Source of the DNA: a virus
Virus record (IMG/VR): IMGVR_UViG_3300034170_000100
Location: 10,795 to 74,794 of that record
Length of the DNA: 64,000 bases
Strand: one strand, 5' to 3'
How positions within the stretch are numbered: the stretch's first letter is position 1; every line of letters starts with the position of its first letter. Of this stretch, positions 1 to 53,645 are shown piece by piece. The translations under genes were made by a program, and so were the position numbers. Below the pieces are notes generated by a model. It saw nothing but the letters and a program-made list of their open reading frames with translations, made no database searches and was not told the DNA's origin.

Positions 1-312
1 CACTGGCCCACAATTGGGCTGCGGTTTGCGTTTATAGTGACGATCACCCTTACGTGGCAATGCATAAGGCATATTGATGATGTCAGCATAGCTATAGGGC
101 CTTAACTCCACCATATCAGGCAATGTCCACACATATTCGATGATTATGGGCCCAGTTACTGCCAGTTGTGCCATGATGCCTGCCGTGAAGTCTTTACCGT
201 TGGCACGGTCAACAGCAATCACACGGCACTCGTGCAGGCCAGGGGCCAGCTTAGGTGCTGCATCTGATTTGCCAATGCCCGCTTGAGCACCTAACACGTT
301 CACATCTTTCAT
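1..312 (-). CDS. hypothetical early protein (runs off the window edge)
   Basis: ATG at 312 (MKDVNVLGAQAGIGK...) with an upstream AGGAG Shine-Dalgarno; open to position 1. Confidence 0.6.
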   Translation of the reverse strand, partial: MKDVNVLGAQAGIGKSDAAPKLAPGLHECRVIAVDRANGKDFTAGIMAQLAVTGPIIIEYVWTLPDMVELRPYSYADIINMPYALPRKGDRHYKRKPQPNCGPV

Positions 313-324
313 GGATTTGCTCCT

Positions 325-361
325 AAAAATTATGGCCACCACCCCAATGGGATGATGGCCA
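325..361 (-). terminator. intrinsic terminator after the gp2-like gene
   Basis: minus strand GGCCATCATCCC-ATT-GGGGTGGTGGCC followed by ATAATTTTT. Confidence 0.65.
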
Positions 362-366
362 GAGGA

Positions 367-711
367 TTACACCAGATCCAGCATCGACTCTTCGTCGGTA
401 CGGGTCGCGTTGAAGCTGAAGGTCAGCTTGGAAGCAACGACACCGAGACGACGTGCTTTTTCAGCAGCCATACCTTCGACCGAAGCGGTCTTGGCAAAGT
501 CAGCATCGCACGCCTGGGACACCGAGAGGTACGCAGCCAGTTGCTCATGCTGCTTGTTGCCTTCGATGAAACGGATACCTTCCAGACGCACAGGTGCGCC
601 AGCTTTGGTCTCGATGTTCACGTTGAAGAACCCGAGGGTTTTCTTCGCGGTACGATCAGCAGCAGTGGAGGTAGCAGGGGCAGTACGGGATGCATTACGT
701 TCAACAGCCAT
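367..711 (-). CDS. N4 gp2-like ssDNA-binding activator of middle transcription
   Basis: low-complexity N-terminus, KTLGFFNVNIETKAGAPVRLEGI core and acidic/hydrophobic tail resemble N4-like gp2 as I recall it; early position downstream of a hairpin promoter. Confidence 0.6.
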   Translation of the reverse strand: MAVERNASRTAPATSTAADRTAKKTLGFFNVNIETKAGAPVRLEGIRFIEGNKQHEQLAAYLSVSQACDADFAKTASVEGMAAEKARRLGVVASKLTFSFNATRTDEESMLDLV

Positions 712-763
712 GGGAAATACTCCAGAATAACGGAAAAGATGAGGTTTATTGGCACAATTGCCT

Positions 764-1042
764 TTAAAGGGCCGAAGGCCGCTCTTGATTCACCAGCGCA
801 GTCAGCGCCTTCAATTCGAACTCAGGTAGCTTGAACAGGCCATTTTCAGGCCCGTCCATGAACAAAGTGTTACCGATGTACAGATGCCACTGATTGTTGC
901 CCAGTTTGAATTTACCGATGATTTCACCTGCTTTATGCAGATAGCCATCGCTATCGACACGATAAATAGGCTCACGCTCACCTAAAATGGTGTAACTGAA
1001 CGAATCATCGGTTAGATCGAGTTCTTGACGTAAACGGTGCAT
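764..1042 (-). CDS. hypothetical early protein
   Basis: ORF with AAGGAG SD. Confidence 0.75.
   Translation of the reverse strand: MHRLRQELDLTDDSFSYTILGEREPIYRVDSDGYLHKAGEIIGKFKLGNNQWHLYIGNTLFMDGPENGLFKLPEFELKALTALVNQERPSAL
770..780 (-). promoter_or_regulatory. virion RNAP hairpin promoter
   Basis: template (+) strand GGCC-GAA-GGCC, upstream of gene 367..711. Confidence 0.65.
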
Positions 1043-1051
1043 GATTGCTCC

Positions 1052-1312
1052 TTAATTGGGTACGGCCAGCTTCATACTGACAGTCATGCCCGACATAACT
1101 GCTGCATGATGCAGAATTTCGAAGGACATTTCGTCTTCTTTGAAGTTTGCGATCTTACAGATCGTAGGAATGCTTACATCGAAGATTTCAGACGCTGTCT
1201 TATAAAGCAGTGTATTTGCATTGATATGCGAGCGGATTTCACTCGCAATGATGTGTTTCATATCCTTCAGACACAGAGATGCGAAGGTTTCGAACTTGTT
1301 TGCAGTGGGCAT
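1052..1312 (-). CDS. XRE/HigA-like helix-turn-helix protein
   Basis: YKTASEIFDVSIPTICKIANF...MSFEIL pattern; GAGGT SD before ATG 1312. Confidence 0.6.
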   Translation of the reverse strand: MPTANKFETFASLCLKDMKHIIASEIRSHINANTLLYKTASEIFDVSIPTICKIANFKEDEMSFEILHHAAVMSGMTVSMKLAVPN

Positions 1313-1413
1313 AGACACCTCAGTTAGCTTACCGCCAAGGCCCAAAAGGGCCACATAGGCGTATGGTTTTCATCGCCGAATATGGCACTTTCTGTATTCT
1401 TGAAATATAGGTA

Positions 1414-1704
1414 TTAGAAGACGAACAATTCGACTTCGATACCTTGGGCACGCAGCTTGTTGTACTCACGTACAGCTACAGCCTCGGCTTCGCCAGGTGT
1501 ACCGCAACCGGACTCCTTGCGCACAGCGATCAGCGACAAGTCGGCAATCAGCACAGACTGAACAGCATCGTTTTGCAGCACAGCAGCAGCGCGAGTGCAG
1601 TCGGTCAGTGTCTTGGCGACACTATCCATTTCAGTGTGGGACACCGAACAGTTCATTGCACCAACAGCATTCATGACACAGGAGACAAAGTAAGCAGCGA
1701 GCAT
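1414..1704 (-). CDS. hypothetical early protein (Cys-containing, hydrophobic N-terminus)
   Basis: ORF with AGGA SD, tightly packed in operon. Confidence 0.7.
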   Translation of the reverse strand: MLAAYFVSCVMNAVGAMNCSVSHTEMDSVAKTLTDCTRAAAVLQNDAVQSVLIADLSLIAVRKESGCGTPGEAEAVAVREYNKLRAQGIEVELFVF

Positions 1705-1706
1705 GA

Positions 1707-2012
1707 TTATTTATCCTGGTTTATGATTGTGAATGTAATGCCAGCCTTCTTGTAGGCCAGTGTAATTCGATTGAGCACAGCATCACGATGTGCCACTGAT
1801 TCGAAGCAATTGTGCGAACCGGGGAACAGTTCGTCAGTATCCAAGCGCTTCATCAAATCGGCCGCAGCTTTAAAGCGAATGCGGTCCAACTTGCCATAGC
1901 AGATGGGCTGACTGATCTGGTGATACTTATCTTGCGTGACGATGTCACACACTGCGTTGGTGCCTTCTTTATTCAGGGCACAGACAACAACCATAGTTGC
2001 AAACAGTGGCAT
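1707..2012 (-). CDS. hypothetical early protein
   Basis: ORF with AGGAG SD. Confidence 0.7.
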   Translation of the reverse strand: MPLFATMVVVCALNKEGTNAVCDIVTQDKYHQISQPICYGKLDRIRFKAAADLMKRLDTDELFPGSHNCFESVAHRDAVLNRITLAYKKAGITFTIINQDK

Positions 2013-2014
2013 GA

Positions 2015-2140
2015 TTAAGCTCCTATGGCTTGGGCATCAAGATACCCGTCTTGCCAGTCTTGATCTTGAGTGTGGTCGAACTCTTCGTCGTCCATGAATG
2101 CTTCATAGCCGGCGTTGTAGTTGTTCATGTTGGAAGGCAT
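2015..2140 (-). CDS. 41-aa acidic peptide (MPSNMNNYNAGYEAFMDDEEFDHTQDQDWQDGYLDAQAIGA)
   Basis: below the ORF-track cutoff; AAGGA SD; fills the gap between neighbours exactly. Confidence 0.65.
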   Translation of the reverse strand: MPSNMNNYNAGYEAFMDDEEFDHTQDQDWQDGYLDAQAIGA

Positions 2141-2152
2141 AGGAATATTCCT

Positions 2153-2377
2153 TTAAGGTTTATTAAGCAGAGCAGCCTCTATGTGATCAGTAAGTTGATC
2201 ACGCAGGCGTTGGCAATCTTCAATATCCAGCAGCACCGACACTTTAGGTGCATTGGCATACTCGGAACTACACACGATAGCAAATGTGTCTTCCAGCCCA
2301 GCACCCTGCACACTGGTGTAAGCAACCAGTACATCAGCAGCAGCCGATGCACATTTATACGATTGACCTTTATCCAC
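2153..2377 (-). CDS. hypothetical early protein
   Basis: GTG start with GGGGA SD. Confidence 0.65.
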   Translation of the reverse strand: MDKGQSYKCASAAADVLVAYTSVQGAGLEDTFAIVCSSEYANAPKVSVLLDIEDCQRLRDQLTDHIEAALLNKP

Positions 2378-2380
2378 GGG

Positions 2381-2710
2381 TTATTCCCCTTTGGCTTTGA
2401 GTTTCATGCAGAGCATGGCCCAGAATTGAACACGAATATCGTTCTTGCGGCGTTTGTACGTGGAGCACGCTTGGCGGAACCCTTTCACGTCATTCGCCCA
2501 CAAGTGGGAGTACAGCGTGCAGCTGCCGTTGATAGCCTCGTCAATTGTTTGACGGGCAGCGTGACATTCCAGATGGGCGATAACACCCTCTATGCGCATA
2601 CATTCAAGCATGCGGCACAAGAACATCTCACCGTCATTGCCACGCAAGTAGCGTGGATCATTTACCGCGAGGGCAATTACATCACTAGTTTTGCGTTGTT
2701 GCTTAGTCAT
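2381..2710 (-). CDS. hypothetical early protein
   Basis: ATG 2710 with GGAG SD. Confidence 0.7.
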   Translation of the reverse strand: MTKQQRKTSDVIALAVNDPRYLRGNDGEMFLCRMLECMRIEGVIAHLECHAARQTIDEAINGSCTLYSHLWANDVKGFRQACSTYKRRKNDIRVQFWAMLCMKLKAKGE

Positions 2711-2876
2711 GACACTTCTCCGCGGCATTCTGTTTAATCATTTCAATAGCATGGGGTTCAGGAACCTCAAAGCCGTTCTCAAAACAGAATCGGTTGATCT
2801 GTTCTGGTGTCATGTTCTTGATCATTTCATTGTGTAAACGACGATCTAGTTCAACAGCCAGTTGATACGCATCCAT
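2703..2876 (-). CDS. hypothetical early protein
   Basis: ATG 2876 with AGGAG SD. Confidence 0.65.
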   Translation of the reverse strand: MDAYQLAVELDRRLHNEMIKNMTPEQINRFCFENGFEVPEPHAIEMIKQNAAEKCHD

Positions 2877-2892
2877 GGATATAGCTCCTATA

Positions 2893-3135
2893 TTAGAGGC
2901 GAGAGCACAGCACACAGTCACAATTGACAATGTGTGCAAACATACGAGGCTTCGTGACAGTTACTTCACACTCACGATGATCATCATGAATGGCAGCAAC
3001 AATGTCAGGTACAGCAATACGACGCATACGCTTAGTACTCAATTGCTTGAGCACACGACGCTCAGTTGCAGTGTTGTACTTACAAATAGGATGTGTAGCA
3101 TCAGCACGAGACAAGCTAGATACATTGCATTGCAT
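2893..3135 (-). CDS. hypothetical early protein (Cys/His-rich)
   Basis: AGGAG SD; just downstream of hairpin promoter 3174. Confidence 0.6.
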   Translation of the reverse strand: MQCNVSSLSRADATHPICKYNTATERRVLKQLSTKRMRRIAVPDIVAAIHDDHRECEVTVTKPRMFAHIVNCDCVLCSRL

Positions 3136-3173
3136 GGATATAACTCCTGTAGTTGTGGCAATTGCCTACTTCA

Positions 3174-3186
3174 TCCCCGAAGGGGA
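3174..3186 (-). promoter_or_regulatory. virion RNAP hairpin promoter
   Basis: template strand TCCCC-GAA-GGGGA; shares the adjacent CAATTGCCT with the 770 site. Confidence 0.7.
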
Positions 3187-3187
3187 A

Positions 3188-3439
3188 CTATGTAAGCATT
3201 ATTGCAAGTTTGATCAGATCGGGTACATCAGCATAATCTATGCGAGTGTCCCCTTCGTGTTCAAATACAGGAAGCAGTACATACCAACCTTCAACGAGAT
3301 ATTGGATAGCCCCTGGCCAATAGTAGGCTATACCACGATATTCAATAAGCAAATACGCTATTTGATGCGCAGTTGGCACACCATTGGGGAATGGGAGTAC
3401 AGAACCGTCAGCCAATAGCATGTATTCATACATATTCAT
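3188..3439 (-). CDS. early protein, paralog of 3443..3670
   Basis: shared EYMLLxDGSV, GIAYYW and IKLAxML motifs. Confidence 0.8.
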   Translation of the reverse strand: MNMYEYMLLADGSVLPFPNGVPTAHQIAYLLIEYRGIAYYWPGAIQYLVEGWYVLLPVFEHEGDTRIDYADVPDLIKLAIMLT

Positions 3440-3442
3440 ACC

Positions 3443-3670
3443 TTACTCCAGCATGGCTGCAAGTTTGATTACAACAGGCAGTTCATCATAGGTTATTTGC
3501 TTGTTACTCACTTTTGGCGATGTATTAGTAATGCAATTCCAGTTAAAGGTATGGTTGTGCCAGTAATAAGCAATACCATCATAATCAGCCATAGCACCCA
3601 TAACATCTTCATGCATGGCCAGATTGTCGAAGGGTTTTACAGACCCGTCACGAAGCAGCATGTATTCCAT
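3443..3670 (-). CDS. early protein, paralog of 3188..3439
   Basis: ATG 3670 with GAGG SD; same motifs as its neighbour. Confidence 0.8.
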   Translation of the reverse strand: MEYMLLRDGSVKPFDNLAMHEDVMGAMADYDGIAYYWHNHTFNWNCITNTSPKVSNKQITYDELPVVIKLAAMLE

Positions 3671-3699
3671 AATTAGACCTCGATTGATACCGCGACAGA

Positions 3700-3708
3700 C
3701 CCGAAGGG
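3700..3708 (-). promoter_or_regulatory. possible weak virion RNAP hairpin promoter
   Basis: CCC-GAA-GGG (3-bp stem) 30 nt upstream of ATG 3670. Confidence 0.4.
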
Positions 3709-4004
3709 ATACGGATACACCACAGGTGTGTATAGGAATGATGAATGGTGTTGATAGGATACAGGAAAGGGGAAACCTGCATGTTGATGCCAAGCACATC
3801 ACAACTTGATCACTGTTTCACTCCAATTCCCTCTACCCCACTCACATATATACATCGATGAGTGGTAATACTGCCTAATGCCACGCTTCGCGGGCTAGCT
3901 GAAGGGAAAGGGGAAGAAAGGGTGTCTTCCTAACCTACTGTCTCAAAGGCTGGCGCTCTTGACGTGGATGTGTGCTCTTGTTGTGTGATGTTGTGTGTGC
4001 TTTT

Positions 4005-4048
4005 AAAAAAGAACTGATACCCAGCCCTATTTAGGGTTTGAGTACCAG
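4005..4048 (-). terminator. intrinsic terminator
   Basis: minus strand CTGGTACTCAAACCCT-AAAT-AGGGCTGGGTATCAG then TTCTTTTTT. Confidence 0.75.
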
Positions 4049-4156
4049 AGTGCTACGACCAGCAGTACAGTGATGGCAAAGCATGTGATAGCGAGTGATG
4101 TTTCGAATGTCATGGTGTGTCACCTGAATGGAGGCCCGAAGGCCCCCGATGGAGAG

Positions 4157-4453
4157 TTAAGCAGCTTGAGTGTTCTTGGCTTCAGCGTGGAGCAGACGGA
4201 GTTTGGACTCAGCGTCAGATGCAGCGAGCTGGGATTCGACAGCACGGATGCGGGAAGCAATGTCATACTTGCCACGGAGAGCGTCGAGTTTCTCGTTACG
4301 CTCAAGAGCAGAGATTTCATTGAAGCCTTCGGCAGCACCTTCGACGTAGGACGCCGTATGTACAGCAGCATTGGACAGCTTGGTGCCAGCAGTGAACAGG
4401 TTGGTCAGCATCAGGGCGAACTGGGCAACCATTGCGAAGATTTGCTTGAACAT
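4157..4453 (-). CDS. first early gene (N4 gp1 position), helical protein
   Basis: AGGAG SD; first ORF downstream of the outermost hairpin promoters. Confidence 0.75.
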   Translation of the reverse strand: MFKQIFAMVAQFALMLTNLFTAGTKLSNAAVHTASYVEGAAEGFNEISALERNEKLDALRGKYDIASRIRAVESQLAASDAESKLRLLHAEAKNTQAA

Positions 4454-4513
4454 GGGTGTATCTCCTAGCTAGGGATAAGAAAGTAGTGAACACCGTTATG
4501 GTATCCACCACAT

Positions 4514-4524
4514 AGCCGAAGGCT
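4514..4524 (-). promoter_or_regulatory. virion RNAP hairpin promoter
   Basis: template strand AGCC-GAA-GGCT; N4 spacing places +1 at C4508. Confidence 0.65.
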
Positions 4525-4653
4525 TAGTTGTTACGACACAGTTGGTAAGTCATGCGTGATACGTCTGCTACGTACAGGGATACGATGGCAATGCATACAA
4601 GTTCGACGAACATAGTGTGTACTCATGAGTAGGAGCAGGATTACTCCGTTACA

Positions 4654-4666
4654 GGGCCGAAGGCCC
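4654..4666 (-). promoter_or_regulatory. virion RNAP hairpin promoter (outermost)
   Basis: template strand GGGCC-GAA-GGCCC. Confidence 0.7.
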
Positions 4667-4844
4667 GTACAGACACAGTAGCGTAGCCATTGAGGAAAAT
4701 GGAAAGCAAGTGAACCCCGGGGGGGTGGTCGGCTTTGGCTGTGGCCACTACATATGTCCTGCATTGACCAGTCTATGAAAATTTCCCACCCACTGCGACG
4801 AACGGTATATCATCCCCTATATTCTATCGACGGACGGCTTTCTC

Positions 4845-5141
4845 ATGGCGGATAAGTACAAGCAGGCAGACAAGCCCTATTCCTACATCGCGGCAAGACT
4901 CGGCGGTACGTTCGACCCTTTACCTTATTGGTTTCGCCTTTTGGCAAATACCGGTATGCTAAGGTTCGATTCAGAGTTCAATGTGGAGGTTCAGCTCATT
5001 ACCGGTGCCTGGGATCAGGTGAAGGAAGGTGACTGGGTCGTCGTGCAGCGGGCGGAAGTGAATGGGCCAATCGGCTACGAGCGGGCCAACATCTGGCATG
5101 TTGAGCACGAAGACTTCATAAAAGGGTGGGAGCGAGTATGA
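4845..5141 (+). CDS. hypothetical protein
   Basis: first rightward ORF; GDWVVV...F.KGWE motif typical of a small phage beta-barrel family. Confidence 0.7.
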   Translation: MADKYKQADKPYSYIAARLGGTFDPLPYWFRLLANTGMLRFDSEFNVEVQLITGAWDQVKEGDWVVVQRAEVNGPIGYERANIWHVEHEDFIKGWERV

Positions 5142-5404
5142 ATACTGGAAATGTGGTAGATGCAACACGTTATGATCCTTACGGGGAAATGGGCCATGTA
5201 AAGGCTCTGCCTATCGCAGAAGCTGTTGAAGCCTATGTAAAAGCTGTTGAGTACTCAGGCAATGTGGGCCGGGTCACTGGTTATCCAGGTGGCACATTGG
5301 CCTGGGACTTAGAAGTCCATCACCGTACAAAGCTGGTTGAGGATGCTGCGTACTGCGTACTTCTCTCCGGTTTTGCTGCTCGTACAGAGGGGAAGGTAGA
5401 ATGA
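5138..5404 (+). CDS. hypothetical protein
   Basis: ATGA overlap with upstream ORF; GGGAG SD. Confidence 0.7.
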   Translation: MNTGNVVDATRYDPYGEMGHVKALPIAEAVEAYVKAVEYSGNVGRVTGYPGGTLAWDLEVHHRTKLVEDAAYCVLLSGFAARTEGKVE

Positions 5405-5649
5405 ACACACAAGATCCGTACAACGAGTTTGCTGACATATTGCCGCTGACTGTGGCAGATGCTGCCAAAGTACTGCGCATTATGACTGCGGAGTTCGCAT
5501 TGGCACAGGAGAAAGTGGCAGAGGCTCAGCGTATGCTGGCTTTTGTCACCACACAACAGGCCCGTGCGGAGTATGCAGTAAAGCGTGCTGAGCATTGCCT
5601 GAAGATCTCTGCCCTGGCAGATCTGAAAGATAGTGGCGGTGCCGCATGA
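5401..5649 (+). CDS. hypothetical coiled-coil protein
   Basis: ATGA overlaps on both sides. Confidence 0.7.
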   Translation: MNTQDPYNEFADILPLTVADAAKVLRIMTAEFALAQEKVAEAQRMLAFVTTQQARAEYAVKRAEHCLKISALADLKDSGGAA

Positions 5650-6338
5650 GTACCGAGGTAATGAGCCCGGATGACTTCAAACTGGCGTTACCTGTGCAGT
5701 TCCGCGGCAATGTGACGCAAGAGGTCATGGATGGGGTCAATGCGCTGTTGGCTGACCCTAACTTGGCGGAAGCGTACCGTGAGCGCATGATCGGGCACAC
5801 GTCTGTCTTGCGGGAAGGGAAGTTCAAGCTGGAGAGCTATCTGGCTGCTGTGAAGTTCGTTACGCAGAAGATGATGAACAAGAGCGACATTGATGCGTAT
5901 ATCGGTACGTTCCCAGCGAAGTACCAGGACTTTGTCGCCCGGGGCGTAAGCCAGAAGGATATCAGCAGCTACGTGAGTGCGTTCAAGAAGTCGAAGCTCG
6001 TGACGAAGATCATGGAGCAGGCTTTGATCCCGGCGTGGGTCGGCAATGCTGACATGTATCAGCAGGCGCTCAATGCACAGTTTGACCTGGGCATGAATGC
6101 TGCCAGCGAGAAGGTGCGCGTGGAGGCACTCAACAGCGTGCTGGTGCAACTCAAGCAGCCGGAGAAGACCAAGATCACCCTGGACGTTTCCGAGGAAGTG
6201 GGCGACACCATGGCGGCTGTGCGCAAGCAGATGCAGGATCTGGCTGACCAGCAGCGGTTGCATATCCAAGGAGGCTTTGCCAATGCCAAGGATGTGGCGG
6301 CGCAGCGCTTGCCGTTTGAGATTGAGGCCCCCCAATGA
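5646..6338 (+). CDS. terS: terminase small subunit (N4 gp69-like)
   Basis: immediately upstream of and overlapping TerL; YLAAVKFV...YVSAFKKSKLV and SEKVR motifs of N4-like gp69. Confidence 0.8.
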   Translation: MSTEVMSPDDFKLALPVQFRGNVTQEVMDGVNALLADPNLAEAYRERMIGHTSVLREGKFKLESYLAAVKFVTQKMMNKSDIDAYIGTFPAKYQDFVARGVSQKDISSYVSAFKKSKLVTKIMEQALIPAWVGNADMYQQALNAQFDLGMNAASEKVRVEALNSVLVQLKQPEKTKITLDVSEEVGDTMAAVRKQMQDLADQQRLHIQGGFANAKDVAAQRLPFEIEAPQ

Positions 6339-7996
6339 CAGCCGTTGTTGAAGTTCCTGTCGATGAAGTGCAACGTTCGGTGGATAGCTGGTTGGATAAT
6401 GTCGATTACAGCATCGACCCTCGTTATGTGCCCAGTCAGTTCGCTTTGGAGTTCGTCACCTTCATTAAGCTGGTGAATGGCGGGCAAGGCGAGGAAAACG
6501 AAACACCTGTGCTCCACTTGAAGATGTTGGACAATATTGACGACATCGAGTACGACGATAAAGGCGAGCTGAACAAGTTCCCTCGCTTGGCAAACATGGT
6601 GTTCCGGGGTGCGGCAAAGACCACACTGATGGGGGAATATCTGTTCCTGTACATCGGAATGTACGGTGGCCTGCCCAACTTCGGCCGAATTGAGCTGGCT
6701 CTGTACGTCTCGGACTCCATGGAGAACGGCGTGAAGAACATGCGCAAGAACTTGGAGTTCCGCTACGAAGAGAGCGACTTCTTGCAGAAGTACATGCCGA
6801 AGAAGTCGCCTGACTGTCCTAATGGCACCGAGTTCACGGATATGCGCTGGAAGTTCCGTAACCTAGACGGGAACATCTTTATCGTCAAAGGTTACGGCGC
6901 CAAGACCGGTGTCCGGGGTTCCAAGGAAATGGGTAAGCGGCCACGCCTGGCAGTGCTCGATGACTTGCTATCTGATGATGATGCACGTTCTCCGACGGTA
7001 ATTGCCGCGGTTGAGGACACAATCTACAAGGCGGTCGACCACGCACTGCATCCTGAGCGCAACATGATCATTTGGTCGGGCACACCCTTCAACGCGAAAG
7101 ATCCGCTATACAAAGCGGTCGAGTCGGGGGCTTGGCGGGTCAACGTGTACCCTGTGTGCAACCAGTTCCCTTGTGCAGAGGAAGACTTCTGCGGTGCGTG
7201 GGCTGACCGTTTCACCTTCAGCTTTGTAAAAAAGAAGTACGAGACTGCGGTAAAGGTAGGCAAAGTCGACACATTCAACCAGGAACTGATGCTTCGCATC
7301 ATGTCCGAGGAGGATCGGCTGATTCAAGACGGGGAAGTAGGCTGGTACAAGCACAAGAACGTGCTGGACTTCAAATCCAACTTCAACTTCTACATTACGA
7401 CGGACTTCGCCACATCCGAGAAGCAATCGGCGGACTTCAGCGTGATCAGCGTGTGGGCGTATAACTACAACGGTGACTGGTATTGGGTGGACGGCATCTG
7501 CAAACGGCAGGACATGTCGGCCAACATCAGTGATCTTTTCACTATGGTTTCGCGTTGGCGCCCTCTTGGTGTGGGTGTGGAGGTCTCTGGTCAACAATCT
7601 GGTTTTATTCCTTGGATTCAGGACCAGATGATGCAGAAGAACATCTATTTCAACCTGACCAGTGAGGGGAACAGCAGTAAGCCGGGTATTCGTCCGAACA
7701 CGAACAAGATGGTCCGGTTTAACACCGTGATCCCCTTGTTCAAGCTGCACAAGATCTACTTCCCTCTTGAGCACAAGATGGGGTCGATCATGATGGAAAT
7801 GATGAACGAGATCAGTCTTGCCTCTAGTTCAGGGTTCCGGTCGAAGAAAGACGACTTCATCGACACCATCTCGATGCTCTCGGTGATGAAACCAATTGCC
7901 CCGACTGCCCAGGAGATTGATCATCGCACGGGCGGTGGAATGTGGGATGATGACGACGTATCCACAGCAAGCCCGCTTTCCAATTACTTAGTGTGA
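6335..7996 (+). CDS. terL: terminase large subunit (N4 gp68-like)
   Basis: Walker A FRGAAKTT, Walker B LAVLDD, coupling motif SGTP, nuclease TTDFA...ADFS...DDFID. Confidence 0.95.
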   Translation: MTAVVEVPVDEVQRSVDSWLDNVDYSIDPRYVPSQFALEFVTFIKLVNGGQGEENETPVLHLKMLDNIDDIEYDDKGELNKFPRLANMVFRGAAKTTLMGEYLFLYIGMYGGLPNFGRIELALYVSDSMENGVKNMRKNLEFRYEESDFLQKYMPKKSPDCPNGTEFTDMRWKFRNLDGNIFIVKGYGAKTGVRGSKEMGKRPRLAVLDDLLSDDDARSPTVIAAVEDTIYKAVDHALHPERNMIIWSGTPFNAKDPLYKAVESGAWRVNVYPVCNQFPCAEEDFCGAWADRFTFSFVKKKYETAVKVGKVDTFNQELMLRIMSEEDRLIQDGEVGWYKHKNVLDFKSNFNFYITTDFATSEKQSADFSVISVWAYNYNGDWYWVDGICKRQDMSANISDLFTMVSRWRPLGVGVEVSGQQSGFIPWIQDQMMQKNIYFNLTSEGNSSKPGIRPNTNKMVRFNTVIPLFKLHKIYFPLEHKMGSIMMEMMNEISLASSSGFRSKKDDFIDTISMLSVMKPIAPTAQEIDHRTGGGMWDDDDVSTASPLSNYLV

Positions 7997-9252: not shown

Positions 9253-11406
9253 ATGGCACAAGATGAACAACAACCGCTGGATACGCTGAACCAGCATAAA
9301 CTGACAGATTGGTCTCACGAACCAACTCTGGCGGAATTAAAGCTCGATGTCGAGAACTCTGCTACTGCGCACAAAACGCAGGTGACGCTAATTGACGGCT
9401 GGCTTGAATATCTACACGCGACTGGTAAAGGTGCGGCGCCGAAGGAGAAGAACAAGTCTCAGGCCCAGCCAAAGCTCATTCGCCAGCAAGCAGAGTGGCG
9501 ATACGCTTCTTTGTCCGAGCCTTTCCTTTCTTCCCCAGACATCTTCGAACTGAAGCCGGTTACCTGGGAAGATCGTAATGCTGCGATGCAGAATGGTCTG
9601 CTGCTCAACAACCAGATGAACACCCGCATCGACAAGCAACACTTGATCGACACGATGGTTCGCTGTGCTGTTGATACCGGCGTGGCCTTCCTGAAGACCG
9701 GTTGGTTGCGTGAAGTCAAGAAGGTGAAGCGCCAGGTACCTCAATACGAGCTGACGCAAAATCCTGAATACTTGCAGATCATGCAGGAACTTGATGCACT
9801 CAAGGCTGAATCGCCGTCGCAGTATTACGAAGTCGATGAAGGTTACCGTCTTGCGCATGAAACCTACGAAACCGATGGCATTCCGTATGCTCCGGTGCAA
9901 GTAGGGTTCATTGAAGAAGAACAGGAAGACGTTATTCAGAACCACCCTACGTTGGAGGTGATTTCACACAAGAACATCATCGTTGACCCAACGTGCAAAG
10001 GTATCCTGGAAAACGCCGGCTTTATCGTGCACAAGTTCCTGACCAGCAAGTCCGAGCTGAAGAAGGACGGTCGTTACAAGAACCTGGACAAAATTGTCAC
10101 TGACAAGGCCCAGCCACTTTCAGAGCCTGACTTTGATGTGGGCGTAAAAGATCGGACGTTCAACTTCGCGGATAAAGCCCGAACCAAGATGGTTGCCTAT
10201 GAGTACTGGGGCTTCCGTGATATTGACGGCTCCGGTGTAGTGAAGCCGTTTGTGGCTACCTGGGTAGGCGACATTCTGATCCGTATGGAAGAAAACCCGT
10301 TCCCAGATGAGAAGCTGCCCTTTGTTGCAATTCCATACCTTCCGGTGTACGAATCGGTATATGGCGAGAGCGATGGCTCGCTGCTGATCGAAAACCAGAA
10401 GACTGTTGGTGCAATCCAGCGTGGCATGATTGACGTGTTCGCCAAGTCTGCCAACGGCCAGACCGGTATTGCAAAGGGCGCCCTCGACGCACCGAACAAG
10501 CGCAAGTTTGTTGAAGGTGGTGACTACGAGTTCAACCCGGGCAACGATCCACGGTCGGCGATCCACATGCACACCTTCCAGGAAATTCCTGTGTCGGCGT
10601 GGCAGATGTTGCAAGCGCAAAACCAGCAAGCTGAAGCAATGACCGGGGTCCAGGCTTTCTCTGCTGGCTTGAGTGGTACGTCTCTGGGCGATACTGCCAC
10701 TGGTGTGCGTGGTGCTCTGGATGCTGCGTCGAAGCGTGAGCTGGGCATTCTGCGGCGTCTCGCTGCCGGTGTAGTGAAGGCCGGCCGCAAGATGATCGCC
10801 ATGAACGCGGCATTCTTGGAAGACAAGGAAGTCATTCGGGTAACCAACGATTCGTTCGTGGACATTCGACGTGACGACCTGGCCGGCAACTTCGACATCA
10901 GCCTGGGTATCTCCACGGCCGAGGAGGACAATGCCAAGGCTCAAGAACTGTCCTTCATGCTGCAAACTGTTGGCCCTAACGTAGGCTGGGAAGTGACGGC
11001 AATCATCCTGGCAGACATTGCACGCTTGCGCAAAATGCCTGACTTGGCCAAGAAGATTGAGGACTATCAGCCGCAACCTGATCCTGTTGCTCAGCAAAAA
11101 GCACAACTGGAACTCGCCTTGTTGCAGGCGCAGATTGTTACCGAACAAGCGCGCGCCGCACAGTTCGGCTCCAATGCTCAACTGCATCAGGTCAAGCAGG
11201 GCACCGAAGTTGCGAAGGCCAACGCACTCAATGCGAACGCCGACAAAACTAACCTCGACTTCTTGGAACAGGAGTCCGGTGTTAAGCAAGAACGCGATAA
11301 GGAGATCATGGACAAACAGCACCAGGGTCAGGCACAGTTGCAGGCAGTTCAATCAGCTATCCGGCAACAAGAAGCAAGTCAGATGAATAAACCTGGCGCT
11401 ACGTAA
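9253..11406 (+). CDS. portal protein (N4 gp59-like)
   Basis: PKLIRQQAEWRYASLSEPFLSS motif, P22-like portal features, Q-rich C-terminal barrel. Confidence 0.93.
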   Translation: MAQDEQQPLDTLNQHKLTDWSHEPTLAELKLDVENSATAHKTQVTLIDGWLEYLHATGKGAAPKEKNKSQAQPKLIRQQAEWRYASLSEPFLSSPDIFELKPVTWEDRNAAMQNGLLLNNQMNTRIDKQHLIDTMVRCAVDTGVAFLKTGWLREVKKVKRQVPQYELTQNPEYLQIMQELDALKAESPSQYYEVDEGYRLAHETYETDGIPYAPVQVGFIEEEQEDVIQNHPTLEVISHKNIIVDPTCKGILENAGFIVHKFLTSKSELKKDGRYKNLDKIVTDKAQPLSEPDFDVGVKDRTFNFADKARTKMVAYEYWGFRDIDGSGVVKPFVATWVGDILIRMEENPFPDEKLPFVAIPYLPVYESVYGESDGSLLIENQKTVGAIQRGMIDVFAKSANGQTGIAKGALDAPNKRKFVEGGDYEFNPGNDPRSAIHMHTFQEIPVSAWQMLQAQNQQAEAMTGVQAFSAGLSGTSLGDTATGVRGALDAASKRELGILRRLAAGVVKAGRKMIAMNAAFLEDKEVIRVTNDSFVDIRRDDLAGNFDISLGISTAEEDNAKAQELSFMLQTVGPNVGWEVTAIILADIARLRKMPDLAKKIEDYQPQPDPVAQQKAQLELALLQAQIVTEQARAAQFGSNAQLHQVKQGTEVAKANALNANADKTNLDFLEQESGVKQERDKEIMDKQHQGQAQLQAVQSAIRQQEASQMNKPGAT

Positions 11407-29901: not shown

Positions 29902-29907
29902 CAAGGA

Positions 29908-49950: not shown

Positions 49951-50273
49951 TTTGCTCCTTTTTCAAAGCAATTGACGCAATTGACGCCATGTTGGGGGCC
50001 ACCCATACCACGGATGACCGTATGGCATTCAACGCAGGAGATGACACAGGCAGTGGTTACCCTTCCTGGTTTTATTGCGAAGATTGGGGCACCATTTTTG
50101 GAATAGCCCAGCGGGGTATCCTCACCGATTTCGATGTACGAAATTTCGGTTGTACCTTGTTCATCCTGCGAAACTACACGAATAGCCGGGCCTAATGCAC
50201 GGGTAAGTGTATCCATGACGCGAGTCTTACCGGAGCCGGTAGGGCCGGAGATTTCAATTTTAATACTGATCAT
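49947..50273 (-). CDS. small protein with a P-loop-like motif and a CxxC...CxxC zinc ribbon
   Basis: GPTGSGKT; CVEC...CVNC. Confidence 0.7.
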   Translation of the reverse strand: MISIKIEISGPTGSGKTRVMDTLTRALGPAIRVVSQDEQGTTEISYIEIGEDTPLGYSKNGAPIFAIKPGRVTTACVISCVECHTVIRGMGGPQHGVNCVNCFEKGAK

Positions 50274-50890
50274 GCTGCGTCCTTCTCACGAATTTTGACC
50301 ATATGCGCTTTGCACACGGCCTTGATGGTTGGAATGTCCGCGTTCACAGGCAGAGTCACAGGAGTTGCCCAGTTCGGATAGAACAGGTCCAGTGCAGCGC
50401 CCAGTTTCACGGTGTCATGTTCAAGCTCCGGCAGTTCCTGCCAGGACATTTCTTCGATCAGCACCCGGTTGGCAAACTCCACCACTACTGGGTCATTTTT
50501 GATCAAGAGGTAGATAGAGTCATGAATCATAGCAACTGGTTTAATGTCGTACCGAAACGGGCTATCGTGCACACGTTTCATGAAAGCCACGGCAGCGCGG
50601 TTATTGAGCAGCCCATATGACTGTCCCATGGCATTACCGGCAGAACGGCCTTCAGCAGCGACTTCTTTAGGTGTACAATCCAGCCCTAGTACAGAACGGC
50701 CTAGCATTGGGGTACGTAAACGTAAACCAAAGGCTACAGTTACGTACCCATCGACTGTTGCTTGTTTTAGGCGGTCCATGATGTATTCAGTGGAGGCTTT
50801 ATACAAATCGTGAAAATTTGCTTCGATGCGCTTGGCTTTATCTTCTGCCCAACCAAGATTCTTCATTAATGTCGCAAAAGTGCCTTGATA
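50270..50890 (-). CDS. polA: family A DNA polymerase, C-terminal segment (from motif B Tyr through motif C)
   Basis: YQGTFATLMKNLG...RSAGNAMGQS...MIHDSIY; the first ATG (50866) lies 8 codons after the conserved Tyr. Confidence 0.9.
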   Translation of the reverse strand, partial: YQGTFATLMKNLGWAEDKAKRIEANFHDLYKASTEYIMDRLKQATVDGYVTVAFGLRLRTPMLGRSVLGLDCTPKEVAAEGRSAGNAMGQSYGLLNNRAAVAFMKRVHDSPFRYDIKPVAMIHDSIYLLIKNDPVVVEFANRVLIEEMSWQELPELEHDTVKLGAALDLFYPNWATPVTLPVNADIPTIKAVCKAHMVKIREKDAA

Positions 50891-50892
50891 AG

Positions 50893-51036
50893 CTAGGTGA
50901 GAGCAAAGGTTGGGGCTTTGCTCTCTTGGCGTTCCTCCTTATAAAGTTTTGCGATGGAGTTAATACGGAACGTGTCATGCTCCGTACTTTCAATTACTTT
51001 GATGCCCTCAATGGGCGTGTTGATTTTTAGCACCAT
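50893..51036 (-). CDS. polA: family A DNA polymerase, 47-codon segment carrying the first part of motif B
   Basis: MVLKINTPIEGIKVIESTEHDTFRINSIAKLYKEERQESKAPTFALT then TAG; AAGGA SD; absent from the ORF track. Confidence 0.85.
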   Translation of the reverse strand: MVLKINTPIEGIKVIESTEHDTFRINSIAKLYKEERQESKAPTFALT

Positions 51037-51604
51037 TTATCCTTGCGCGGGTTACGCGCTGCAAATAGAGAGATTCGTCCAATTCACCTTCCAATCCCAA
51101 CTCTTGTGCTATTTTCCGCACCTTAGTTGATAGAAAGGGTACTTTATATGGGACTCTTGATGTTAGGCTCTGATAAGACTCACCTTCGATGACGGCGTAC
51201 AGACAATCCACAAATTCTTCTTTAGTGAGTCTGGTTGTGTACACACGCAGCCCTTCGCCAATAGCGTGCAGCTTATTTTCTAGCGAGGTGACCCATTCAA
51301 GATTGGTGCGCGCGTTATTACTACGTACCCCATCCTTATGATTAACCTCTGGTTTGTTTTCTGGGTTGGGTATATGCGCAAGTGCTACAAGCCTATGTAC
51401 ATAAAACGATGTGCCTACATTGCCTGCCCACAAGCTAACTTGAGGGTATTGGGTGTCTTTGTGTGGACTTTGACGTAGCACACGCCCCTTACGGGGGTAA
51501 GTCACACCATCCCGTCCTACGATGATGCGATCTATTGACCGCACCACACCACAGTCACTTACTTCGTAAAGTCCCGTGTAATCAGGCACATTGGAGAAGT
51601 TCAT
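51008..51604 (-). mobile_element. NUMOD4-HNH homing endonuclease inserted in the polymerase gene
   Basis: VPDYTGLYEVSDCGVVRS (NUMOD4), VHRLVA, EVNHKDGVRSNNARTNLEW (HNH); overlaps both polymerase halves. Confidence 0.93.
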
Positions 51605-53645
51605 ACAGTTCCTTACCGGTCATTAAATTACCCAGGTACTCTACTTCCTCCGTAGCGTAAAAGCAAACGTCGGTATCACCAACCTTTGCTCGGTAACACA
51701 CGGCATTCTCCGGTGCCGTTTTAATATCTGACATCCGTTCAGGAAAGTATGCAAAAGCGCGTAAGCAGTGCCCATCATAACCGTCGATGTATACTTTCAG
51801 TTTGTTTGGGTCGCGTGTCGTCAAAGCAGAGATGTAATCTTCCAAAGATGCAAAATCTGCGCCTGCAAAGATCCATCCTGGCGGCCCCATGAACAGTTCC
51901 TTGATTAACTTACCGTAAGCGCTACCACTTGGTATATTTTGCATGTTTGGGTCGGAAGACGACAAACGTCCTGAAATTGTGCCGCCCAGGTTGAATACGC
52001 CATGCAAATAGCGCATGCCGTCGGCTTTGAGGATGCCATTCTCGAATGCAGGCATGAATGCCTGAATGATCTTGGTTACCGCTGAATAGTCGATCAATGC
52101 TTGCAGCAATACCACATATGGCTTGGCCGCTTCGTGATCGAGCAACTGCTTGATGATCTTGCCCCCGGTGGCTGGCGCCTTGGTGGGTGTCCGTGCAAGC
52201 ACAGGCAAGTCCATCAGTTCGTACAACAGGCGGGCCAATTGCAATGGCGAGCCTGGGTTGAAGATCGTGTCGCTGAATTTCTCCAGCGGGTGCTGTTTCG
52301 TCTTCAGTTTGGCGTTGGCCGCCTCCATTGCAGATACCTGCAACAGATAGTTCAGCTTGGCCACCATCGGATCACTTTGGATAACGAGCAGGTATTCCTC
52401 CTGCATCTTCTCCAGTTTTTCCTTGGTTTCGGTGACCTTCTTCGGGTCCATTGGCAAGCCCACCAACTCGACGTTGATGATCAGCTTCATGGAATCCTTC
52501 ATCAGGCCGTCGTACAACTCCAGCTGCTGATCCTGCACCACGACAGGCATATGCTTGTCATAGGTGAAGTTCGTGGCCATACAGTCCACTCCGTTGTAAC
52601 GGAGTAGGTTTGGCAGTGGAATTTTGCGGATGTCCTTGATGTCGTCCTCTGCGTAGTTGCCGGTGAACTCCTGGGACTGGTACTTCAAGCCGAGGGTGTT
52701 ACCCGAGCATGAGTTGACCGAAAGGTAGCTGAGGATCTTGGTGCAATCCAGATTGCTACACATGATGTCCAGACCTTCCAGACAGCTCACGTAATCCAGC
52801 GGATCACGCATCCAGAGGTTGTAAATCAGGTGCTTCACGTCAAACGTGGCACTGTGGAACCGCTTGGCGCCGATGTACTTCTTGAGGAAGTCCTTGAGTA
52901 TTTCACGAACCTCGACGTTGTCCTTGCGGTAGTGATAGTTCCCATCTTCGTCCTTTGCGCCCAGATCGTTCAAATCGACAGGGAATGCAATGAAGTCGTG
53001 GTGGGTCCAGGCTAAAGCGAAGGTGGCAATACCACATTCGTCCAGACGCAGGCTGTAGCCCTCGATGTCCATGGCAAGGTGGGGGAACTTGTGCAGTTCC
53101 ATCAGCGCGTTGCGGATTTCGTTCGGGGTCTTGGGGTAGAACTCCGAATGGATGATCTTGTCACCAGGCGGCACGTAGTTGCCCAGCACTTTGCTGCACA
53201 GCGCGTCCAGACCTTGTTCCAAGTGCGCTTGCTTATCCGGTGCGTAGATCAGCACCTGATAGTTCACACCCAGGACCACTTGCATGTGCTCGTAGCCTTT
53301 TACAGCACAGGGCAGCGAGTAGCCCAGGTGAACCTCGGACTTCTTCTGACCGGTGAGGTACTTGAAGTACGTACCATCGGTGCAGTAGATGAACTTGGTG
53401 CCGGTGCGCTCCAAGACGTTCAGCAGGCGAGCGGAATACTCCTTCACCTGTTGCGCGGATACCTTCTTCGCATTTTCATACGAGAGGGTGAAGGCAATGC
53501 AGTCCTCCTTCTTTATCCCTCTGGTTTCCAGCGGAGCGATGTAGTTTTTGTAGATCAAGTTCTGATCGAACGTGTATTGCTTCATGAGCATGGCAACGGG
53601 ATAATTACCGGACTCATTTTTACCGAAAAACAGGTGGTGACGCAT
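51582..53645 (-). CDS. polA: family A DNA polymerase, N-terminal part (3'-5' exonuclease, thumb, motif A)
   Basis: ExoI DIEG, ExoII FDVKHL, ExoIII YNGVD, TISGRLSSSDPNMQNIP, motif A ADFASLE, YDGH. Confidence 0.95.
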   Translation of the reverse strand: MRHHLFFGKNESGNYPVAMLMKQYTFDQNLIYKNYIAPLETRGIKKEDCIAFTLSYENAKKVSAQQVKEYSARLLNVLERTGTKFIYCTDGTYFKYLTGQKKSEVHLGYSLPCAVKGYEHMQVVLGVNYQVLIYAPDKQAHLEQGLDALCSKVLGNYVPPGDKIIHSEFYPKTPNEIRNALMELHKFPHLAMDIEGYSLRLDECGIATFALAWTHHDFIAFPVDLNDLGAKDEDGNYHYRKDNVEVREILKDFLKKYIGAKRFHSATFDVKHLIYNLWMRDPLDYVSCLEGLDIMCSNLDCTKILSYLSVNSCSGNTLGLKYQSQEFTGNYAEDDIKDIRKIPLPNLLRYNGVDCMATNFTYDKHMPVVVQDQQLELYDGLMKDSMKLIINVELVGLPMDPKKVTETKEKLEKMQEEYLLVIQSDPMVAKLNYLLQVSAMEAANAKLKTKQHPLEKFSDTIFNPGSPLQLARLLYELMDLPVLARTPTKAPATGGKIIKQLLDHEAAKPYVVLLQALIDYSAVTKIIQAFMPAFENGILKADGMRYLHGVFNLGGTISGRLSSSDPNMQNIPSGSAYGKLIKELFMGPPGWIFAGADFASLEDYISALTTRDPNKLKVYIDGYDGHCLRAFAYFPERMSDIKTAPENAVCYRAKVGDTDVCFYATEEVEYLGNLMTGKELYELLQCA

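Follow-up and report, generated by a model that had tools for sequence, protein, structure and literature searches.

The DNA studied here, a window of 64,000 nucleotides (nt) taken from the IMG/VR record IMGVR_UViG_3300034170_000100 (positions 10,795 to 74,794), encodes on its minus strand (50270..53645) the DNA polymerase of an N4-like (Schitoviridae) phage, a family A enzyme whose gene is interrupted within motif B by five nucleotides, TAGCT, that open with an in-frame stop codon. Comparison with 12 other contigs carrying a 5-nt gap at the same site establishes that the gap is real and conserved under constraint, that it is linked to a gene for an HNH homing endonuclease and transferred along with it as one block, and that a hairpin immediately upstream covaries. 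The best reading of these data is that the gap is probably crossed by a programmed +5 hop of the ribosome, in which peptidyl-tRNA-Thr would leave one threonine codon and re-pair beyond the stop. An earlier note on this DNA had proposed such a hop, and every comparative test that we ran supports it, with the decoding itself inferred from sequence. The note had also called the gene essential. The source record is the genome of an uncultured virus; it is 74,794 bp long, has direct terminal repeats and is rated 100% complete, and the only family A polymerase in it is the pieced gene in the window; because this is the sole PolA of a complete genome, the polymerase gene is essential.

A stop-containing gap in polymerase motif B

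In the nearest isolate, Pseudomonas phage phCDa, the polymerase is encoded by one uninterrupted gene of 877 amino acids (aa) that reads ...RQESKAPTFALTYQGTFATL... (RQESKAPTFALTYQGTFATLMKNLG at the site). The window carries the same gene in pieces (Table 1). The upstream piece, or N-subunit, is collinear with nt 1-1901 of the phCDa polymerase gene at 83% identity and matches Pfam DNA_pol_A over residues 443-640 (E=3e-25); a homologous-protein search returned three close relatives of it (P0001-P0003). The 47-codon open reading frame (ORF) that follows ends CGC CAA GAG AGC AAA GCC CCA ACC TTT GCT CTC ACC TAG, and its start, ATG 51036, falls within the 3' end of the HNH ORF, which overlaps both polymerase pieces in a frame different from each. 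Beyond the gap, polymerase sequence resumes as YQGTFATLMKNLG... and stays open to a TGA at 50272..50270; this frame is 91.7% identical to the phCDa polymerase C-terminus, covers positions 224-361 of the DNA_pol_A profile and has its first ATG at 50866, eight codons past the motif B tyrosine. Skipping 50895..50891 joins the frames as RQESKAPTFALTYQG in a product of 253 aa (47 + 206), and blastn against the phCDa polymerase gene places a single 5-nt gap exactly between the phCDa codons ACG (Thr) and TAC (Tyr). The earlier note's account of these letters (the end of the ORF, TAGCT, the change of frame and an ATG, 50866, that comes after the Tyr) proved correct to the base, and its 253-aa product with an intact motif B is confirmed. 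It had further credited ATG 51036 with a Shine-Dalgarno (SD) sequence; AAGGA is present, though its spacing, just 3 nt, is short.

Table 1. Features of the split polymerase locus (positions in the window).
Feature	Position	Strand	Remarks
Polymerase N-subunit ORF, 687 aa	51582..53645	-	UDG-like/exonuclease region, family A polymerase through motif A, added C-terminal tail
C-terminal extension of the N-subunit, 46 aa	51585..51722	-	KTAPENAVCY...ELLQCA; lacking in phCDa (alignment)
Free-standing NUMOD4 + HNH homing-endonuclease gene, 198 aa	51008..51604	-	Pfam HNH_3 E=1e-10, NUMOD4 E=1e-9; 52% identity to the intron-borne HNH of Acinetobacter phage nACB1
47-codon ORF with its TAG	50893..51036 (sense part 51036..50896)	-	ends RQESKAPTFALT, then TAG
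Added N-terminal leader, 24 aa	51036..50965	-	followed by the cassette's own exon copy, INSIAKLYKEERQESKAPTFALT
10-bp hairpin, GAGAGCAAAG / 7-nt loop / CTTTGCTCTC	50899..50925	-	last base of the 3' arm directly precedes ACC
Take-off codon ACC (Thr, codon 47)	50896..50898	-	ACC, ACT or ACG among carriers
5-nt coding gap TAGCT	50891..50895	-	missing from phCDa; stop TAG 50895..50893 overlaps landing triplet GCT 50893..50891
Resumed polymerase frame, 206 codons	50270..50890	-	motif B Tyr TAT 50890..50888, YQGTFATL... through motif C

A search with the degenerate pattern APTFALT + 5 nt + YQG returned one IMG/VR contig (L003) and four metagenome contigs (L084-L087), and an alignment-based HNH search together with a looser pattern added L149, L150, L153, L154, L236, L237 and L238, which brings the set with a 5-nt gap to 13 contigs, the window and 12 others (Table 2). 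A single HNH protein as query for related loci found distant HNH genes only, whereas the alignment-based query succeeded. Sixty loci that lack the gap but encode the identical motif, ESKAPTFALTYQG, served as controls; they represent 51 distinct sequences.

Table 2. The gap and its flanking codons in the window and in related contigs.
Contigs	Take-off	Gap	Landing	Resume	Remarks
Window	ACC	TAGCT	GCT	TAT	
L003, L084, L085, L086	ACT	TAGCT	GCT	TAY	
L087	ACG	TAACT	ACT	TAC	
L149, L150	ACG	TAGCG	GCG	TAT	
L153, L236, L237	ACG	TAACA	ACA	TAT	
L154	ACG	TAACG	ACG	TAC	
L238	ACT	TAACT	ACT	TAT	
L151	ACG	41 nt	ACG	TAT	HNH cassette
L152	ACT	47 nt	ACT	TAC	HNH cassette
L156	ACT	40 nt	ACA	TAT	HNH cassette

The gap occurs in five versions (TAGCT, TAACT, TAGCG, TAACA and TAACG), and in 13 of 13 contigs it has a length of 5, T at position 1, A at position 2 and C at position 4, with G or A at position 3 and position 5 free. 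TAG or TAA stands directly 3' of a threonine codon in all 13. The triplet before the Tyr codon is RCN (R, purine) throughout and a true threonine codon in six contigs, and the take-off and landing codons match exactly in ACG-TA-ACG (L154) and ACT-TA-ACT (L238). Moreover, the third base of the landing triplet suits the tRNA of the take-off codon, ACY occurring with GCT, and ACG with GCG, ACG, ACA or ACT. YQGT follows in frame right after the gap in every carrier. Between carrier lineages the flanking polymerase is 45-63% identical, and paths in the HNH tree reach up to ~1 change per site. This pattern of constraint (fixed length, fixed stop, RCN landing) fits a hop.

The gap is not a chance occurrence: of nine matches to the pattern PTFALT-TAR-NN-Y in IMG/VR, eight fall in N4-like polymerases, whereas the 15 matches to it in prokaryote genomes (596 Gb) include no polymerase and are all due to chance. 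Among isolate phages the cassette that holds the HNH gene and the gap gave no match by megablast, and the N-subunit tail gave only chance matches by tblastn; the cassette is absent from the cultured phages of the isolate collection searched.

An upstream hairpin and the predicted hop

The base before the take-off codon is the last base of a hairpin, in which GAGAGCAAAG (50925..50916) pairs perfectly with CTTTGCTCTC (50908..50899). The fold has z = -3.8 in the window, and all carriers fold so, with z from -2.2 to -4.6. All ten pairs are Watson-Crick in five carriers, as compared to none of the 51 distinct gapless sequences, which mostly have 3-6 Watson-Crick pairs of 10, and the mean folding energy of the upstream 63 nt is -18.6 kcal/mol in carriers versus -10.8 in controls (standard deviation 4.8). 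In an alignment of 11 carriers, 95.5% of cells are paired and three pairs have changed on both sides, values as high being obtained in 2 of 500 shuffles. Compensatory changes convert GAG..CTC to AAG..CTT in L154 and L238 and to GCG..TGC in L151, the latter at the cost of E>A and L>C in the protein, while L149/L150 and L156 provide other 5' partners for the same 3' arm. The hairpin covaries. Upstream of it, at 50926-50943 (minus strand), the window also has a GGAG-type SD-like run, found 33-37 nt upstream of take-off in most carriers and kept despite differing encoded residues (KEE, TGE, DRR); phCDa has GGAG too, and the run may mean nothing.

In the mechanism that we propose, ribosomes would start at ATG 51036, read 47 codons and come to a halt with ACC occupied by peptidyl-tRNA-Thr in the P site and with a weak stop signal, UAG-C, in the A site. 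A UAG followed by C is a poor termination context. The tRNA would then unpair, the mRNA would slide by 5 nt and the anticodon would re-pair with GCU (RCN among carriers, ACN in six relatives), after which UAU would enter the A site to give ...APTFALT-YQGTFATL..., with the junction APTFALTYQGTFATLMK, an intact motif B and a 253-aa subunit. At the stall the 3' arm of the hairpin would be within the ribosome and the 5' arm outside, and re-forming of the stem probably pulls the mRNA forward. Published work includes the observation that refolding upstream hairpins weaken -1 and stimulate +1 frameshifting (PMC6321510), and a recent study contains the proposal that hairpin refolding drives the bypassing in gene 60 of phage T4 (10.1101/2024.12.09.627546). 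In a variant of this mechanism, Tyr-tRNA would misread UAR and then hop to UAY; the same protein would be made, but two rare events would be required.

A mobile block with an HNH nuclease

The HNH gene is present in every carrier that has the upstream region on its contig, with the exception of L238, and in none of the 60 gapless loci does it lie within 1.5 kb. The co-occurrence of gap and nuclease, suggested beforehand as a check on the hop, holds on both sides apart from that single gap without HNH. Between carriers, the HNH gene is better conserved than the polymerase around it: the window and L003 are 67% identical in the HNH and 46% and 45% identical in the N and C parts of the polymerase, and the corresponding values for L084 and L085 are 99% versus 85% and 92%. 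The gapless locus L129, which lacks the HNH gene, and L156, which has a 40-nt gap, share 99% identity across 2.5 kb on the upstream side and 0.6 kb on the downstream side and differ in one block, in which 695 nt of L156 (the HNH gene, leader, re-coded exon copy and gap) take the place of 126 nt in L129; homology restarts exactly at the landing Thr codon. Similarly, L153, L236 and L237 show no difference in the upstream sequence at hand, in the gap or for ~13 nt past it, and then diverge. In L238 the 5-nt gap sits in an unsplit polymerase gene with neither HNH nor leader, where take-off would come after 648 codons, indicating that the gap can outlive the HNH gene.

Relatives with other interruptions were found at the same site. 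Within each of the long gaps of L151, L152 and L156 there is a strong GC hairpin, with matched Thr codons on both sides and ATA-TAA, CTC-TGA or GGA directly 3' of the take-off codon. In Acinetobacter phage nACB1 (OQ032511, L002:3343-4190), an HNH protein 52-54% identical to those of the carriers is encoded in an intervening sequence of ~850 nt, and the record annotates the polymerase as two coding sequences flanking the HNH gene. This intervening sequence is a group I intron in motif B (Rfam RF00028, E=8e-9); the inserted ORF keeps its score under the curated cut-off. The intron is bounded by GCG-T and TA-ACA-TAT, and its site precedes that of the window's gap by 5 nt; joining of the exons gives APTFALTYMG, a junction confirmed by the intron-less relative XC38. 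A single HNH family is thus found at a single site with an intron, with a long bypass-type gap and with a 5-nt gap, and the 5-nt gap is also found there without the nuclease. A further locus with this HNH family, L155:3140-3170, has one extra base in motif B (ACC TTT C GCA CTT ACC TAT), which may be a +1 shift site (tRNA-Phe slipping from UUU to UUC) or a homopolymer read error.

By analogy with T4 MobA, the five nucleotides would belong to a mobile block together with the HNH gene, an N-terminal leader and a re-coded copy of the exon. In the conserved motif B sequence the gap most likely disrupts the target site of the HNH nuclease and so makes the carrier immune to its own enzyme; only 5 nt separate the gap in the window from the point at which nACB1 has its intron with the homologous HNH.

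The peptides added at the break are themselves conserved. The 46-aa tail of the N-subunit is kept at the protein level in all split carriers, and the same is true among split relatives of the 24-aa leader, which phCDa lacks; in an alignment of the split carriers, 11 of 11 have exactly 47 codons with Thr at codon 47. These tails probably help the polymerase halves to re-associate, by analogy with MobA and MobE insertions. Structure prediction of a complex between the last 173 aa of the N-subunit and the 47-aa ORF gave a score of 0.47 (best of three controls, 0.00), with at least 85% of contacts shared between runs and a partner pLDDT (predicted local distance difference test) of at least 67. 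Support from this is weak. Of 80 solved complexes, 58 reach the mark used, but only 7 of the 80 do so at a score of 0.60 or below, and 2 of 110 mismatched pairs reach it as well; because the chains are halves of a split gene, a pass may only mirror likeness to solved PolA structures.

Some of the gapless loci (L091, L103, L114, L125, L129, L143 and L144) keep a split at the same place and added tails with no HNH and no gap, so the split can persist independently. Several split gapless loci have a different ORF of 160-215 aa between the halves, ending ...TADG.IVPWL.SQTDM.A.DW, which also adjoins the HNH gene in L155 and L156. In L130 and L135, both gapless, other endonuclease-like ORFs interrupt the polymerase elsewhere, upstream of or just past motif A, and the polymerase gene looks like a hotspot for selfish nucleases.

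The leader and the position of take-off at codon 47 are conserved in all split carriers, yet the gap in L238 has no leader. It is conceivable, although we would put the chance at a little under even, that the gap is a minimal natural bypass made up of a Thr codon, UA and a Thr-like triplet whose first base completes the stop, with the re-forming of a 10-bp hairpin at the mRNA exit as its sole driver and with no structure in the gap, no SD and no nascent-peptide signal. A nascent-peptide signal would be unneeded in such a device because L238 would hop after 648 codons without the leader. The same tentative scheme would arrange the forms found with this HNH family as a series, from group I intron (nACB1) to 40-47-nt hairpin bypass, 5-nt hop and orphan gap, in each of which the interruption would serve as a mark of immunity to the nuclease.

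Alternative readings and known systems

Part of the data weighs against the hop. The landing triplet in the window is GCU, which is not a threonine codon, and re-pairing of the anticodon GGU would require G-U pairing at the first and third codon positions. The segment is of common descent in the carriers, so inheritance may account for some of the conservation and some of the hairpin signal. A first covariation count, which included the contigs with an alternative 5' arm (L149/L150), was not significant (93 of 500 shuffles). About half of the gapless controls partly pair the segment in minimum-energy folds, and for this reason such pairing alone does not discriminate, whereas the perfect 10-bp stem and the overall stability do. 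Lastly, the dipeptides that a -1 shift would insert (LA, VA, VT) vary conservatively between lineages.

This last observation favors the alternative that fares best, a programmed -1 (or +2) frameshift near the stop, which would place two extra residues (FALT-LA-YQG) or one inside motif B. The -1 frame is open from 17 codons upstream, and a stop in the A site stimulates frameshifting as well. However, no slippery X XXY YYZ heptamer is present around the stop (GCT CTC ACC TAG), and tRNA-Thr would be unable to re-pair on CAC or TAC at -1 or on CUA at +2. The first inserted codon would end in TA in 13 of 13 contigs while neighboring third positions vary freely, and this constant TA implies selection for the stop rather than for Leu or Val. 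Extra residues would also disrupt the F-x3-Y spacing of motif B, to which phCDa, XC38 and the nACB1 gene after splicing all conform, and the relatives with 40-47-nt gaps could not be read by a frameshift at all. We consider this explanation improbable.

Less probable again is the absence of any recoding, in which case translation would stop at the TAG and the polymerase would consist of the 687-aa protein, a 47-aa peptide and a fragment started downstream at Met 50866, with the loss of the motif B Tyr and seven residues. Split family A polymerases do exist (PMC10201439), and an ATG lies eight codons past the Tyr in the window, L003, L084, L085 and L238. On the other hand, ATG 50866 has no preceding SD, and L086, L087, L153, L154, L236 and L237 have Val or Gln at its position with no other start codon nearby, so reinitiation at this 'TLM' position is not a general solution. 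The three-piece reading would also leave unexplained why the gap length, stop position and RCN triplet are fixed, and it does not account for the YQGT kept in frame after the gap in all carriers.

We regard as slightly more doubtful still the removal of the five nucleotides from the RNA by micro-splicing or editing, perhaps guided by the hairpin that abuts the gap, as the last remnant of an nACB1-type group I intron. In favor of such a process, nACB1 has its homologous HNH in a genuine group I intron whose site precedes this one by 5 nt, and the hairpin next to the gap is conserved. However, Rfam detects no group I core in the window between 49800 and 52600 at E up to 10 (the positive control, nACB1, gives E=8e-9), and the overlap of the HNH ORF with both flanking ORFs leaves no room for one; a group I intron in the window was accordingly rejected. 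The conserved stop and Thr-like triplet suit a ribosome and not splicing, and we know of no mechanism for excising 5 nt.

The metagenomic origin of this uncultured virus record would allow for an assembly or sequencing error, or for a dead gene in a defective genome, but the gap is present in 13 contigs from different samples and in five sequences, and the polymerase is the sole PolA of a genome that is complete and bears terminal repeats, which makes this the least credible explanation; assembly error, named in the earlier note as an outcome that would count against its hop, is untenable because independent contigs from several metagenomes carry the gap. Two further candidates were tried and rejected. 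The tails total ~70 aa, too small for the Hint domain of a split intein, and have no Pfam match; the residue after the putative C-terminal Asn is Gln in L003, and INSIA is already native in the unsplit phCDa polymerase. As for reassignment of TAG, the zero frame ends nine codons later anyway, and TAG closes ordinary long ORFs in the window.

The programmed hop can be compared with several known systems. In T4, the cassette of gene 39, mobA and gene 60 includes a 50-nt bypass, and homologues are found in Myoviridae topoisomerase genes (Manning and Atkins, 10.1101/2022.08.31.505936). The parallel that the earlier note drew with gene 60 holds in detail. In both, an insertion of ~0.7-1 kb that encodes an HNH homing endonuclease divides an essential replication gene and gives the upstream half a C-terminal tail and the downstream half an N-terminal leader; a second, small insert has an in-frame stop as its first codon, which follows codon 46 of the new downstream gene in T4 and codon 47 here, so that both gaps open at codon 47-48; take-off and landing codons match or nearly match for the carriers taken as a family, although in the window itself (ACC and GCT) one tRNA would pair with both only through two G-U pairs; and nuclease and gap move as one block, with some relatives keeping the gap without the nuclease and others the split without the gap. 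The differences are that the target here is a Schitoviridae family A DNA polymerase and not a topoisomerase, that the gap is ten times shorter and cannot accommodate a take-off stem-loop, an internal SD or an AU-rich tract, that the stop overlaps the landing triplet, that the take-off tRNA would be Thr and not Gly, and that the RNA element conserved here, a hairpin, lies 5' of the take-off codon. The 40-47-nt relatives resemble T4-type bypasses in carrying GC-rich hairpins in the gap, which a 5-nt gap cannot. A tblastn search with the window HNH against T4 bases 1-6500 gave no match in the gene 39-mobA-gene 60 region (best E 0.37, elsewhere), a weak test because T4 mobA is itself defective.

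Synthetic stop-hops in Escherichia coli (Weiss et al. 1987, reviewed in PMC5009743) likewise take a peptidyl-tRNA over a stop to a matching codon a few bases downstream, with slow decoding of the stop in the A site as the trigger, but these are engineered and occur at a low level, whereas the hop predicted here is natural, conserved, frame-changing (+5) and in an essential gene. According to the same review, no natural in-frame stop hop is known, although short natural hops are expected (PMC5009743). With nACB1 the window shares a homologous HNH (52-54% identity) that interrupts the same polymerase motif, 5 nt upstream of the gap; in contrast to the group I core and non-coding flanks of ~140 and 130 nt in nACB1, of which the window has neither, the HNH gene of the window lies between two translated gene halves and only 5 nt break motif B. 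Fractured split-intein genes (Dassa et al. 2009, PMC2677866) are similar in having two ORFs, an endonuclease gene between them and short peptides added at the break, but the added peptides in the window, ~70 aa in total, are too short to hold a Hint domain and match nothing in Pfam. No paper describing this polymerase gap was found in the literature, and neither a split nor a gap of this kind is mentioned for the N4-like cluster in a survey of family A polymerases.

Elsewhere in the window, at 29905-29988 (minus strand), ARAGORN predicts an 84-nt tRNA-Leu (anticodon AAG) that has no match in isolate phages. The anticodon arm of this tRNA-Leu-like gene seems too short by eye (~13 nt, TTCCCATAAGGTC), and it has no evident link to the hop.

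To our knowledge, T4 gene 60 is essentially the only case in which bench work has demonstrated efficient bypassing, and its homologues are confined to one topoisomerase gene. The locus described here would extend the logic of a nuclease combined with a coding gap to another essential gene and another phage family. With its few parts (a stop, two Thr-type triplets and an upstream hairpin), the 5-nt version is small enough to be dissected in full with reporters, and it offers a direct test of the idea that pairing of the mRNA leaving the ribosome drives forward movement. Natural variants are available as well, namely five versions of the short gap, three long gaps, the intron form of nACB1 and the orphan gap of L238. 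There is also a consequence for annotation, in that gene callers split or truncate such polymerases, and essential genes that appear 'frameshifted' are easily dismissed as errors.

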